This document shows, piece by piece, positions 12,001 to 18,000 of a stretch of 44,716 nt of DNA; within the stretch, counting starts at the first letter, position 1, and each line of letters opens with the position of its first letter. The DNA comes from Escherichia coli. Its GTDB lineage: Bacteria; Pseudomonadota; Gammaproteobacteria; Enterobacterales; Enterobacteriaceae. Made by a program: the position numbers. Location of the stretch: NCBI RefSeq assembly GCF_048403405.1, contig NZ_CP183137.1, one strand, 5' to 3'.

Positions 12001-15000
12001 CTGGGGAGAATGGCAGCTCAACGACCGGGGATGCCATCTACATGCGCGGCGTGGATACCTCTAACAGCATCTATGTGGACGGTATTCGCGACATCGGCAG
12101 TGTGACGCGCGATACCTTCAATACCCAGCAGGTGGAAGTCATCAAAGGGCCCGCCGGCACGGACTATGGCCGCAGCGCACCCTCCGGCTCGATCAATATG
12201 ATCAGCAAACTGCCGCGCCTTGACCCCGGGATCGACGGCGCGGCAAGCATCAGCAGCGCCTGGTCGCGTCGGGGCACTCTCGACCTTAACCAGGCATTCA
12301 GCGACAACGCTGCGTTCCGTCTAAACCTGATGGGGGAAAAAACCCATGACGCTGGTCGGGACCGCATTGAAAACGAACGCTATGGCATCGCACCGTCGCT
12401 GGCCTTTGGACTCGATACCTCAACTCGTCTGTATCTGAACTATCTGCACGTCCGGCAGAACAACACCCCGGATGGCGGGATCCCTACCGTCGGCCTGCCG
12501 GGCTATTCGGCGCCTTCGCCGAAATATGCCGCGCTCAACTCCGCCGGTAAGGTCGATACCAACAATTTCTATGGCACCGACTCCGATTATGATAAATCTA
12601 CCACCGACAGCGGCACCCTACGCTTCGAACACGATCTTACGGACAATACCACAGTGCGCAATACCACCCGCTGGTCGCGGGTGAAACAGGAGTATCTTCT
12701 GACCGCGGTGATGGGCGGCGCGAGAAATATCACCGCCCCAAACATCAATGACGTCAACACCTGGAGCTGGTCGCGTCTGGTTAATACCAAAGATGTCAGC
12801 AACCGCATTCTGACCAACCAGACCAATATCACTTCGACGTTCAATACCGGCTCGATAGGCCATGATGTCAGCGCCGGCGTGGAGTTTATCCGGGAAAACC
12901 AGACCAACTATGGCGTTAACGCTCTGACCGCGCCGGCGGTGAATCTCTACCATCCGGTGAGTAACCTGTCGATTGGCGGGCTGGACAGAAACGGGGCGAA
13001 CGCCAACGGCCAGACCGATACCTTCGGGATTTATGCCTTCGATACGCTGACGCTGACCGAGCGGATTGAGGTCAACGGCGGGCTGCGTCTCGACAATTAC
13101 CATACCAAATATGACCGCGCCACCGCCTGCGGCGGCAGCGGACGCCGGGCTGTCGCCTGCCCGCCCGGCCAGTCGACCGGCAGCCCGGTCACCACCGTCG
13201 ATACCGCCAAATCCGGCAATCTGGTTAACTGGAAAGCCGGGGCGCTGTACCGCTTAACCGAGCAGGGCAATGTCTACGTCAACTACGCTATCTCACAGCA
13301 GCCGCCGGGGGGCAGCAGCTTCGCCCTGGCCGCCAGCGGCAGCGGCAATAGCGCTAACCGGACCGACTTTAAGCCGCAGAAGGCAAAATCCAGCGAGCTG
13401 GGCACCAAGTGGCAAATATTCGACAAACGTCTGCTGCTCAGCGCGGCGTTATTCCGTACGGATATTGAAAACGAAGTGGCCGCCAACGATGACGGGACTT
13501 GGTCGCAGTATGGCAAAAAGCGCGTGGAGGGGTATGAACTCTCCGCGACCGGAAACCTGACCGCGGACTGGACGATCATCGCTGGCTACACTCAGCAGCA
13601 TGCGACAGTGACAGAGGGGCAGAATGTGGCACAGGATGGTTCTTCCGCCCTGGCCTACACCCCGAAACATGCCTTTACGCTATGGACGCAGTATCAAGCC
13701 ACTAGCGATCTATCCGTCGGCGGCGGTGTGCGCTATGTCGGGGGCCTGCGCCGGGGCAGCGATGGCGCAGTCGGTACCCCGGATCACACCCAAGGTTACT
13801 GGGTAGCCGATGCCAAACTGGGCTATCGGGTCAACAGCAACCTCGATCTGCAGCTCAATATGTACAACCTGTTTGATACCGATTACGTGGCCTCCATCAA
13901 CAAGAGCGGTTATCGCTATCATCCGGGCGAACCCCGTACCTTTTTGCTGACGGCGAACGTCCACTTCTGAGTCTGTGCGTGGGGCTATTGCGCCCCACCT
14001 TTTAGAGAGAAGACCTCGATGATGTATCACATTCCTGACGTGCTATCGGCAGACCAGGTGGCGGAATTTACCCGGCAGCTGGCGCTGGCCGAGTGGGTCG
14101 ACGGGCGGGTTACGGTCGGCAGCCAGGGGGCGGCCGTCAAACAGAACCAGCAGATCGATACCCGAACGCCGCTGTATGCCCACCTGCAGGCCGCTGTGCT
14201 CGACGCGCTGCGCGGCCATCCGCTGTTTTTTTCCGCCGCGCTGCCGCGGACGATTTCCGCACCGTTATTTAATCGCTATGGGCCAGGGGAGACCTACGGT
14301 TTTCATGTCGATGGCGCCGTTCGTCAGAACGGTGAGGTGGGTTGGATGCGCACTGACCTGTCGGCAACGCTGTTTCTTTGCGATCCGGAGAGCTATGAGG
14401 GCGGTGAACTGGTGATTGAAGACACCTATGGCCAGCACCGGGTGAAGCTCCCGGCCGGGCATCTGGTGCTCTATCCCGCCAGCAGCCTACACTGCGTCAC
14501 CCCGGTCACCCGCGGCGTGCGTCAGGCCTCTTTCCTGTGGATCCAGTCGATGGTCCGCGACGATAAACAGCGCGCGATGCTCTACGACCTGGACCGTACC
14601 ATTCAGTCTCTTAAGGCCCGCTTTGGCGACGGAGAAGAGGTCCTCTCTCTGCTCAATATGTATCACAACCTGCTGCGCCAGTGGACGGAAGTATGATCCG
14701 CTGATCGCAAGCAGGGAGGACGAGGCAATAGACTGGCCGTCCGATGGCCAGTTTTCAACAGAGATTAAAACCAATAGCCTGTGGAGAACATACCCCCACG
14801 GACCAGGCGCGTGCTGACTTTCTGGTCCACGCTGGCGGCTTTGAATTTCACATCGGTATCGATATCCATGTAGGGGTTTGAGGGCCAACCGTACGAAAAC
14901 GTACGGTAAGAGGGAAATTATCGTCTTAAAAATCGATTAGTAGACAATGCCGTCCGTTAAGTGCCAATTTTCGATTAAAAAGACACCGTTTTGATGGCGT

Positions 15001-18000
15001 TTTTCTATGTCCATTATGTTTTTGATATATCAGACAGTTACTTCACTAACGTACGTTTTTGTTCCATTGGACTTCAGACCCCGAATCCCAGAAACTTCTG
15101 TCACTAAAGCGAGTCTCCGACAGCTTTGCATGACATTGAATAAGTGACAGGTTATATGACGAATTCAGTGTCGAAATCGTTATTTCTGTGAGCGTCACTC
15201 AATCGGTCGTTTGTGTGACACTCCCGTAAAAATTGGTCGCCAGGTTTCCGGCTTAGACCCCCTTTGTGGTGTTTTTTTAATCTTTTTGGGGTTTTAATTC
15301 CTATCGATGAACACGCCAACGATGTTATGACCAGAAGACAACAGCGCGTCGAGATGACGCGCTGCAAAGTCAGGTGTACCCGCAAAAATAATACGTAGTG
15401 ATTCTGACACGTTAATTCTTATCCTTAAGCCCGGGCTTTCAGACGATCCAGTTTTTCAACTTTCTGACGAATACGTTGTTGTTTCAGCGGTGACAGATAA
15501 TCCATAAACAGTTTGCCGACCAGGTGATCCATCTCATGCTGAATACAGATGGCTAACAGACCGCCTGCTTCCAGTTCAAATGGTTTACCGTCGCGGTCCA
15601 GGGCGCGAATTTTAACTTTCTCTGCGCGTGGCACTAAAGCTCGTTGTTCAGGGATTGACAGGCAACCTTCTTCAATGCCTGTTTCGCCGCTTTTTTCTAA
15701 AAGCTCCGGATTGATTAACACCAGCCGTTCGTCACGGTTTTCCGAAACATCAATTACAATGATACGTTGATGGATATCAACCTGGGTTGCCGCCAGGCCA
15801 ATACCTTTTTCTGCGTACATCGTCTCGAACATATCATCGACGATACGCTGAATTTCTGCATTCACTTCTTCTACCGGTTTAGCAACTTTGCGAAGCCGCT
15901 CGTCCGGAATATGTAACACTTGCAAAACTGACATAAATCTCCAGAGATGTGTTCAGGAGTTAGAAAGATTATTTCTTCTACTGTACCGTAATCAGATAAT
16001 CGCAGCAAAGGGACAAAGCAATAGTCCCTTTGCTGCACAGCATCAGAATGAATAACGAATATTAGCGTTTATCGCATCATCTGTGTTGTATTTACCAAAT
16101 GCAGAGCGTTCAACTTCCAGCCCCAGACGCGTATTGTCGCCAAACCGGGCATTTAACCCCACACCGTAAAGCATACGACTGTCTTTTCTGCCATTAATCT
16201 GATGTTCTCCCGCTGCATACTTCAGATGAACGTCAGCACTGTCCGTCAGATCGAACTCATAATGCAGGCCGGCACGGGCTGTCAGACTCCAGTCCTTACC
16301 ACTGAAGGTTTTACCGGAAACAACGCCGGTTCTGCCTACCAGAGGATTAACGCTGTTACGACGCATTGAGACATCCATTCCACTGTCGTTCCAGTTAAAT
16401 GTTTGGCCCTGCAGTCTTCCCCAGACCAGTTCCGCCTGAGGTTCAACAAACGTCGTATCTGTCAGATGATAACGGTATCCGACTTCTGCACCTGCATACA
16501 GTGAATGGCTGCGGAAGTTCTGTTTACCAGCTCCGGCAAAGTTCAGGTCATATTTGTTTTCATTGTGAATATATTTGGCAATCACATCAAAGTAAGCGCC
16601 GGACCGGAACAGACCACTGGCATAGAAACCACCACCCCATGATTTTGTTTTACCGCTGTACAGGTCTGCTGACGCATCTGTGTCAGTGTAGGTGGCCATC
16701 ACGCCGGTAAACAGGTCCATACTTCCCAGTTCGTGCTTACGGTCAGCCCCCATCTGCAGCAGGGTATAGTGGTCAGTGAAACCGCCATCAGCAGAGCCGG
16801 AACCGTTCAGCAGACGCACCCACGTACCGGCTTCGCCATTAATATCCCTCAAATCGCCCATGCGTTTGTTCAGGTTGTTAACTTCAGTGATGAAGTTGTT
16901 ATAGCTGATGTGCATGAATGTGGCGGCAGCCTTACCCTGGCCGTCGTTACGTGCAACCTGGTAACCATCGAGGACCCACTCTTTTTTCCCGTCCTCTTTT
17001 CTGACACTAAGGATGGGGGTGACATCACTGAATCCCACAACCCGTGTTGATGCCCTGAACAGATTATCAGCTGTCGCTTCAGGTGCGCTGACCAGTGGAA
17101 TATCAAGCGTGTCCTTGTTAGAAGGTTTTTTCAGGAAGTTAACCCAGATGCTGTTGTCATGACCTGTTGCCGACTTGTTTATCACCAGTTTGTCTGCCTT
17201 GTTAAGGTCTGTACGCATGACAAATGCTGACTGAACCGCGTCCAGATTATCTGTTGTCAGTGTCGTGAACGGTGATGTTCCCCCGTTAAAACCGACGATT
17301 GTCCGGTTAAGTTTCATATTTCCTGCCGTGGAGTTTCCGTTCATCGACCACTGGGTGTCTGTCATGCTGACGGTGGCATCCGGTGCATTCAGGCTCCCGC
17401 TCCAGATATTGCGGTACCCGTTAAACAGGCTGTACAACATCTGATTCTGAAGAGTCAGGTCAGGACTCAGTTCCCCTTCCCCTCCGAGGGTGACAGTCCC
17501 TTTATCCTGAACATTGATATTACCTGACAACATACTGTACGGCCCCACGTTCAGGCGGGCATCGTCTCCCTTCAGGTTCCATGAACCGGCATAATCGTAT
17601 ACAGGTAAAAGTGTGTGAGATACCTCATCAGGACGGCTGTTCAGACTCAGGGTGGCATCAGAAATATTCACTGGACCGTCAGAAACAAAACTCTGACTGG
17701 CCAGAGCATTTGCTCCCTTGTTCAGATTCAGGGCGGTACTGGTCAGTGTTGAGTTCCCCAGAACGGCACTGTCTGAGGAGATATTCACGGTACTGTTGTT
17801 CGCCTGTATTCCGCCATTGAATATATCATTGATATTCAGCACTGACTGATTATCCAGGTTGACGGTGCCGTTGAAGACACTTTTATCTGCATCTTTAGTT
17901 GCAACAGATGAGCCTTCTTCAAGGGTAAAGGCTGTTCCCTGGCCATCGTTTTTGTCGATAAATACCCGGCTGTCGCCCAGCGTGACGCTGGAGTTATCTG

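Follow-up and report, generated by a model that had tools for sequence, protein, structure and literature searches.

Here, we analysed a 44,716-nt stretch of Escherichia coli DNA (contig NZ_CP183137.1), called the window in its full length and used as the reference for all coordinates given without further label, in which a plasmid-borne copy of the peptide deformylase gene def is followed by a truncated formyltransferase gene, fmt. We found that fmt breaks off directly at the tip of the insertion sequence (IS) IS91, and this junction is almost certainly a scar left by rolling-circle transposition of the IS91 family. The locus is an ordinary inherited transposition scar and not a new system. 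Its carrier is an IncF-type virulence plasmid of mosaic structure. Read in reverse orientation, the window agrees at 99.98% identity with a section of pCREC774-3 (NZ_CP183144.1; E. coli 774, urine, Taiwan). Among its contents are genes for F4(K88)-type fimbriae and for a Tsh/Hbp-like autotransporter, along with several copies of IS91-family elements and fragments of other IS elements.

The fmt breakpoint and the IS91 terminus

Homology to the E. coli chromosome covers exactly positions 15308–15980 and was detected by megablast in 5,425 of 5,426 complete E. coli genomes at 98–99.4% identity. This captured piece of 673 bp comprises 46 bp upstream of def, def itself and codons 1–34 of fmt. On the fmt side, homology stops at GGC GTG TTC/A (the slash marks the break), which puts the breakpoint at a native 5'-GTTC with an ambiguity of one base; comparison of the def flank with the chromosomal def-fmt locus, as suggested in the first-pass annotation of the window, places it at GTG/TTC of fmt. 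The tetranucleotide GAAC at 15309–15312 (plus strand), which is 5'-GTTC on the fmt sense strand in codons Val33–Phe34, was confirmed by the chromosomal alignment to be native sequence. It corresponds to the target and cleavage tetranucleotide of IS91, as the first-pass annotation had proposed, and stands beside the IS91 tip without any target duplication.

What remains of fmt is annotated as a pseudogene by the Prokaryotic Genome Annotation Pipeline (PGAP) at 15294–15410 on the minus strand. It starts with a GTG at 15410, 14 bases downstream of def, runs through 34 native codons (15309–15410) and continues with Ile-Asp-Arg-Asn-stop contributed by the IS91 tip. The earlier description of a stub ending after GVF was right about the end point, but not about the length, which is 34 native codons and not 33. 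The stub covers 33 of 315 model positions and scores 20.9 bits against TIGR00460 (cut-off 201.5); with 34 of the 315 fmt codons left, a complete formyltransferase domain is not present.

The sequence adjoining the breakpoint reads ...GGGGTTTTAATTCCTATCGAT. Four matches to the pattern TTCCTATNNNN[GC]AA[GC] are present in the window (0.07 expected); these ori-type ends were aligned visually on the tetranucleotide and then compared with intact IS91 by BLAST. The first-pass annotation had noted a resemblance of the junction to IS91-family ori ends, and the match is stronger than proposed: the last 46 bp before GAAC (15263–15308, plus strand; TTTGTGGTGTTTTTTTAATCTTTTTGGGGTTTTAATTCCTATCGAT) are 100% identical (46/46) to positions 1788–1833 of an intact IS91 in the Shigella dysenteriae plasmid NZ_CP026826, that is, to the right end or oriIS of this element. 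The reference IS91 is ~1.83 kb long and the stop of its 121-codon orf overlaps the tnpA start by one base. In the extracted locus (L006), orf spans 1307–1672 and tnpA 1672–2859, the left end reads ..CCTCGAGTAGGCAGCC (..CTCG/AGTAGGCAGCC), the right end lies at 3046 and GAAC follows directly. IS91 is known for orf121, for cleavage at 5'-CTCG at its left end terIS, and for a 5'-GTTC or 5'-CTTG target beside oriIS (PMC13181058). Because all 46 positions agree with an intact IS91 showing these features, we assign the junction to IS91's own end; judged by this identity, it is the real oriIS tip and more than a resemblance. The same 46-bp terminus recurs in many Shigella and E. coli plasmids, including pO157.

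It might be argued that fmt was broken by illegitimate recombination and that the likeness to an IS91 end is coincidental. Other joints of the mosaic do look illegitimate, namely the microhomology between the ATGG of dprA and an inverted-repeat unit, and the flanks of an IS101 copy without duplication (both described below). This explanation is nevertheless effectively refuted by the 46/46 identity to the exact IS91 terminus at the breakpoint together with the canonical tetranucleotide, and the expectation of 0.07 pattern matches per window speaks against it as well, so that we regard coincidence as extremely improbable.

Compared with complete IS91 (prototype X17114), a member of the HUH rolling-circle IS family, the window shows the same terminal 46 bp, the same abutment to 5'-GTTC and the same lack of a target duplication, and the orientation is the expected one with the tnpA side upstream of oriIS. 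Unlike the prototype, it keeps the tip only, and tnpA, orf121 and terIS are gone from 15263–15308. Experimentally, 82 bp of the IS91 right end suffice as origin (PMC13181058); the 46-bp tip is shorter and is probably an inert relic here.

The other three pattern matches, ending at 8477, 39550 and 39901, read ...TTTCAATTTCCTATACGT followed by CAAG or GAAC, in agreement with the first-pass description of the ori ends in the window. They belong to the type of a second IS91-family member distinct from IS91, termed element B, which encodes a 402-aa transposase and has the left end GAAC-CACGGCAGCCTGGCGGCTGC. The end at 8477 closes a diverged (~89%) 3' fragment of the element-B type (7936–8477; ...TTTCAATTTCCTATACGT followed by CAAG), and a 153-codon open reading frame (ORF) starts at 8491.

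Distribution and origin of the junction

The same fmt breakpoint with the same IS91 tip is present in the window, in pPIMMR (IncI/X), in ETEC2265 (NZ_CP023348) and in Kp309074 (Klebsiella pneumoniae, NZ_CP030298), and a minimum of 87 plasmids in PLSDB cover 80% or more of 15263–15980. Copies of this lineage also share the amino-acid change E43K in Def (numbered from Met1; window position 15808), a derived, non-synonymous substitution which was present in 5 of 5 copies examined (window, pPIMMR, two IncF plasmids and a truncated copy on one ColV/tsh plasmid, L018) and in none of the five chromosomes compared. Since E43K is common to all five copies of this junction lineage, we infer that the junction arose once and was inherited thereafter.

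The IS91 beside the fmt stub has been eroded to different degrees. In ETEC2265 and Kp309074 it is an internally deleted copy of ~267 bp with both ends kept, composed of 107 bp from the terIS side and 155 bp from the oriIS side and devoid of genes (L002 3784–4050; L003), and in the window and pPIMMR just 46 bp of it survive. The ~267-bp mini-IS91 exceeds the 89 + 82 bp found experimentally to be sufficient for transposition and has a full IS91 ~1 kb away; it might be mobilisable in trans.

To describe block boundaries, we used positions of a chromosomal reference region of the def locus (L008). At L008 1216 and 1648, the copies in the window and in pPIMMR match the chromosomes of NC101 and FDAARGOS_1253 (at 1308 this applies to the window only), and the IncF copies from ETEC and Klebsiella carry K-12/O145-type alleles at those positions, a pattern that may reflect gene conversion with def of the host once the plasmid copy had been acquired.

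Plasmid copies of def with other boundaries were also found. A def block in ~600 Klebsiella plasmids spans L008 1310–1905, is 96% identical to E. coli, lacks the fmt stub and encodes a Def with four amino-acid changes; the copy on pKCTC2242 (NC_017541; L009 3501–4095) lies ~3 kb from iucA. Since it is bounded differently and has diverged in sequence, this block points to a separate capture, for which another Escherichia-like species may have been the source. A third block, covering L008 1262–2520, occurs in CP088375, CP024249 and CP088772 (L010, L011 and L012); its Def carries A26T and, in two of the three copies, E65K and D124E too.

Formation of the junction

How did an IS91 tip come to lie beside fmt? 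Our favoured reading, which we rate somewhat above even, is an inherited IS91-family scar that arose via one-ended rolling-circle transposition with def as passenger; one-ended transposition taken by itself is rated at even or slightly above. Such events move IS91 along with variable lengths of adjacent DNA (PMC5737581) and are described as needing only oriIS and an adjacent 5'-CTTG or 5'-GTTC (PMC5737581, PMC13181058). An IS91-family element would have been located beyond def with its terIS facing def, an arrangement preserved in three plasmids at a CAAG in dprA. Replication would have started from oriIS of that element and read through terIS, so that a dprA'-def-fmt' segment would have been copied and cut at the GTTC of fmt, and the resulting unit would have been inserted at GTTC beside the oriIS of a resident IS91. 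Later, in the line leading to the window, the resident IS91 would have shrunk to 46 bp and become linked to an inverted-repeat unit, a copy of IS101 would have joined this unit to a foreign fiu-ybiX segment, and from 15980 onwards the 3' flank of a tsh-like gene would have taken the place of the sequence upstream of def.

We lean towards one-ended transposition because of the joint between terIS and dprA. In CP088375, CP088772 and CP024249, 560 bp of dprA are joined to terIS of element B (...CTTGAG/GAACCACGGCAGCC), the chromosome reads ...CTTGAG/CAAGG at this point, which is a canonical target, and the element is oriented such that read-through would copy def and fmt. The way in which element B terminates argues in the same direction: its left end carries GAAC, and its normal termination cut therefore follows 5'-GTTC on the transferred strand. 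A termination cut after 5'-GTTC is likewise described for IS801 and IS1294 (PMC13181058). The window itself provides a precedent, which also makes us lean this way, as 39551–39901 repeats in tandem, without a mismatch, the final 351 bp of the element B at 37836–39550. The tandem copy starts at an internal GAAC directly after the oriIS of the complete copy, and each of the two ends with ...TTCCTATACGT followed by GAAC; it looks as if rolling-circle replication had ended at a 5'-GTTC inside the element and its product had been placed next to the resident oriIS. Tandems of IS91 with oriIS, GAAC and terIS in direct succession were found in Shigella.

Several points weigh against this reading. The junction sequence predicted by direct insertion of IS91 into fmt is exactly the same as that predicted by one-ended transposition. 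The premise that one-ended IS91 events end at GTTC or CTTG, as Mendiola et al. (1994) are said to have observed, draws for the present case on a single tandem copy in the window. Between plasmids carrying the IS91 junction and those carrying the dprA joint, no derived single-nucleotide polymorphism is shared and the boundaries differ on both sides; lacking shared derived polymorphisms, the two lineages could not be traced to a single origin. No plasmid record holds both the terIS-dprA' joint and the junction of IS91 with the GTTC of fmt'. On the right side, the plasmids of the IS91-junction lineage that we compared with the window keep the whole def-dprA spacer up to the ATGG of dprA, which is joined with 3–4 nt of microhomology to 59 bp related to the inverted-repeat unit and then to an oriIS fragment of element B, and not to terIS. 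Finally, replication reading through from dprA would have left two GTTC sites uncut on its way to the one in fmt.

Following the direct route, IS91 would have inserted oriIS first at GTG/TTC of an fmt copy located on a plasmid or transiently in the chromosome, and afterwards a deletion, or recombination of IS91 copies with one another, would have removed the distal part of fmt. We consider this possible, but clearly less probable than one-ended transposition. It finds support in the fact that 5'-GTTC accounts for 41–47% of experimental IS91 insertions and that the orientation fits (PMC13181058). It also requires no unobserved mobilising copy, and the element beside fmt' in ETEC2265 and Kp309074 has both ends, which is what insertion of IS91 followed by an internal deletion would leave. 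Against it, the DNA to the left of this mini-IS91 is not fmt. The route moreover predicts a reciprocal junction of distal fmt (…GGTCTGGCTGGGT) with terIS of IS91 (AGTAGGCAGCC…), and a search with a chimeric query of these two halves returned no record covering both, neither in the 5,426 E. coli genomes nor in 72,556 plasmids. No locus examined, and none among the plasmid matches listed, extends past GTTC into distal fmt; this and the missing reciprocal junction are further reasons why we lean towards one-ended transposition. Direct insertion also calls for both an earlier capture and a later deletion, and had it taken place in the chromosome, disruption of fmt would cripple growth, as it does in fmt mutants, and would be strongly counter-selected.

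The outcome resembles captures by one-ended transposition of IS91-family and ISCR elements, such as IS1294b with blaCMY-2 or ISCR1, in that the fragment is delimited by IS91-family ends and GTTC and is spread over many plasmid backbones. It differs from them in its cargo, a housekeeping gene with no known selectable phenotype, and in that the mobilising copy is not preserved beside this junction; the transduction step is one that we infer.

Coding capacity and expression of def

The def copy (15425–15934, minus strand) is an intact ORF for a peptide deformylase of 169 aa. In line with the earlier description of a complete, E. coli-like gene, 167 of the 169 residues are identical to the invariant chromosomal Def, the equivalog model TIGR00079 matches over the full length (219 bits, cut-off 104), and the three catalytic motifs, HEMDH among them, are kept in the translation. 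As far as the translation tells, def may still encode an active enzyme. The two differences from the chromosomal protein are E43K, found in every copy of the junction lineage examined, and D124G (15564), which is private to the plasmid of the window. Upstream, 46 bp of native DNA including the ribosome-binding site remain (15935–15980, minus strand), where chromosomal homology ends.

Little seems to be left of the native promoter. The chromosomal def-dprA spacer contains a single promoter-like site, CTGTCA-18-TAGAAT, with its -10 element corresponding to window positions 15980–15985 and its -35 element further upstream. At the 15980 joint, this predicted promoter loses the -35 element and five of the six -10 bases, and a promoter scan reported no passing site upstream of def in the window; by eye, a weak TTGCTG-17-TACAGT (7/12) spans the joint. 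Read-through from the tsh-like gene is possible, since def follows 108 nt downstream in the same orientation and the 13-bp perfect hairpin between the two genes (16002–16036; -40.3 kcal/mol, z = -4.4) has no clean U tract. The terminator scan did not report this hairpin. At best, def would be transcribed here from a weak hybrid promoter or by read-through from the tsh-like gene.

Substitutions point in a similar direction. Those found only in plasmid def are 5 non-synonymous to 5 synonymous, compared to 1:10 among the five chromosomes, which suggests relaxed constraint. Two observations weigh against reading def as a passenger: this test reaches only p = 0.063 (Fisher), and def is intact in hundreds of plasmids, which could reflect selection. 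Overall, we see no sign of retention for function and regard def as passenger DNA.

Why, then, would def be found on so many plasmids? A second or altered (E43K) deformylase might benefit the host, for instance by dosage-dependent tolerance of natural deformylase inhibitors, with the IS91 scar reflecting the route of arrival. We deem such selection unlikely. Similarly doubtful is a second deformylase that would have been captured repeatedly and selected, with changes particular to each lineage, E43K among them, that would affect sensitivity to inhibitors or the handling of substrates. In its favour, def occurs on plasmids with three sets of boundaries and has thus probably been captured more than once, one version is present in ~600 Klebsiella plasmids (in one examined, ~3 kb from iucA of the aerobactin locus), all eight full-length plasmid copies translated are intact (8/8), and E43K, shared throughout the IS91-junction lineage, adjoins catalytic motif 1. 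In the parts of Wein et al. (2021, PMC8297927) that bear on def, a survey of plasmid-borne homologues of essential genes in Escherichia, the gene is listed on 13 plasmids, plasmid Def forms a clade apart from chromosomal Def and sub- or neo-functionalisation is suggested, a separation that would also speak for selection; those parts do not discuss the junctions or a capture mechanism for def. Against selection stand the cut native promoter region with no passing site upstream of def, the truncated and frameshifted def tolerated in the ColV lineage, and amino-acid changes that are scattered, lineage-specific and 5:5, as under relaxed constraint; an ORF of 510 bp can, moreover, stay open by chance over short times. 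The literature search found no paper linking plasmid def to tolerance of actinonin or other deformylase inhibitors. The first-pass annotation had raised the idea that an extra def copy increases inhibitor tolerance by gene dosage; because of the promoter truncation, the 5:5 substitutions and the damaged ColV copies, the sequence evidence leans against it.

Elements on the fmt side: IS101 and an inverted-repeat unit

To the left of the IS91 tip, 14911–15308 had been taken for one block of transposon-derived DNA. It proved to be a mosaic of three unrelated pieces, namely IS101, a 180-bp remnant and the IS91 tip, and did not align contiguously with any known element lacking an IS91-type terminus. 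The Tn1000-like inverted repeat reported in the first-pass annotation is real (14873–14908) but not isolated, as it is paired with a second repeat at 15047–15082 (36 nt each, 78% complementary). Both are the ends of a complete IS101 variant, a Tn3-derived miniature element of 210 bp (14873–15082, minus strand; left inverted repeat at 15082, right inverted repeat at 14873), identified by its inverted repeats and by alignment.

The element aligns over its full length with IS101 of pSC101, for which we used the sequence in Table S2 of PMC13367494, at ~93% identical positions and 96% mean column identity, and it recurs as a discrete 1–210 unit at 97–98% identity in many unrelated plasmid contexts. 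Its length and its Tn3-family terminal inverted repeats, which start GGGG, agree with those of Tn3-derived miniature elements of ~209 bp. Length, terminal repeats and internal sequence resemble those of IS101 of pSC101 (209 bp, a Tn3-derived inverted-repeat miniature element mobilised by Tn1000), whereas the window copy has one extra base (a 1-nt gap), ~14 substitutions and no 5-bp target duplication. The flanking 5-mers differ (atgta and gaatc) and the two flanks derive from different sources. Because of these unequal 5-mers and a left flank made of the foreign fiu-ybiX-'ompW segment, a simple insertion does not account for this IS101 copy, which marks a rearrangement joint between unrelated DNAs.

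This foreign segment (11652–14872) encodes the catecholate siderophore receptor Fiu, YbiX and a piece of an OmpW-like protein and sits between an IS1 fragment and IS101. Its right end, the left flank of IS101, is an ompW-like pseudogene fragment (14764–14872, minus strand; PGAP annotation of pCREC774-3). No match of at least 85% to the segment was found in any other of the 5,426 complete E. coli genomes, and its source is probably a different genus of enterobacteria.

IS101 and the IS91 tip are separated by the 180-bp non-coding remnant (15083–15262, plus strand) of a ~200-bp unit with imperfect 35-nt inverted repeats (GTTCTAAACCGG...CCGGCTTAGAAC), the left tip of which was removed by IS101. 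Identical sequence was found only in pPIMMR and one K. michiganensis plasmid; homologues with both repeats (77–81%) are present in Salmonella p2-4 and K. pneumoniae p4710_2. The unit (GTTCTAAACCGGAAACCCAG... / ...GGTTTCCGGCTTAGAAC) was located at 15083–15262 in the window and at L007 2990–3188, L017 2501–2700 and L001 5084–5142; it recurs in IncF-type plasmids of Salmonella and Klebsiella, and related pieces flank the def block in pPIMMR. Rfam gave no match within 14600–16200 at E <= 1, and the 180-bp piece is not among the Tn3-derived miniature elements tabulated in PMC13367494.

The tsh-side joint and its ColV relatives

The captured piece breaks off on its other side at 15980, leaving 46 bp upstream of def, and is fused there to the 3' flank of a Tsh/Hbp-like gene (15981–16042, minus strand), a junction also present in tsh/ColV plasmids. 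The gene itself (16043–20152, minus strand; ORF and annotation) encodes an S6-family serine protease autotransporter. The tsh/ColV plasmid L018 has the same def-tsh joint and E43K; its def is cut at 15542, a cut shared with other ColV-type plasmids, and carries a 1-nt deletion leading to a frameshift.

An fms-like orf2 of 143 aa has been described downstream of hbp on pColV-K30 (Otto et al. 1998, PMC2212542). It shares with the window the def-tsh/hbp junction, the spacing of ~110 nt and the sequence of the ribosome-binding site, and the ColV-type copy that we compared has the E43K allele. Whereas ColV copies of def end at window position 15542, here def is complete and is followed by the fmt stub and the IS91 tip. 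The window is a fuller form of the ColV orf2 block, and presumably the earlier of the two.

Significance

Each part of the locus has a precedent: an IS91 end at a target already documented for it, chromosomal DNA transduced or inserted by the IS91 family, IS101, and a def remnant beside hbp/tsh, described as early as 1998. Three small points may be new. The junction is assigned exactly to the oriIS of IS91 itself, the window is recognised as preserving more of the ColV orf2 block, and the terIS-dprA joint documents a linkage of def to an IS91-family element. No clinical meaning has been demonstrated; to our knowledge, deformylase inhibitors are not in routine use, and wild-type E. coli is already protected from actinonin by efflux.

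The main value of the finding lies in annotation and plasmid history. The fms-like orf2 beside hbp/tsh, seen since 1998, is explained, and the movement of housekeeping DNA onto virulence plasmids by rolling-circle insertion sequences is documented here in a natural case by the combination of an IS91-family end, a breakpoint at GTTC and a preserved terIS-dprA joint.

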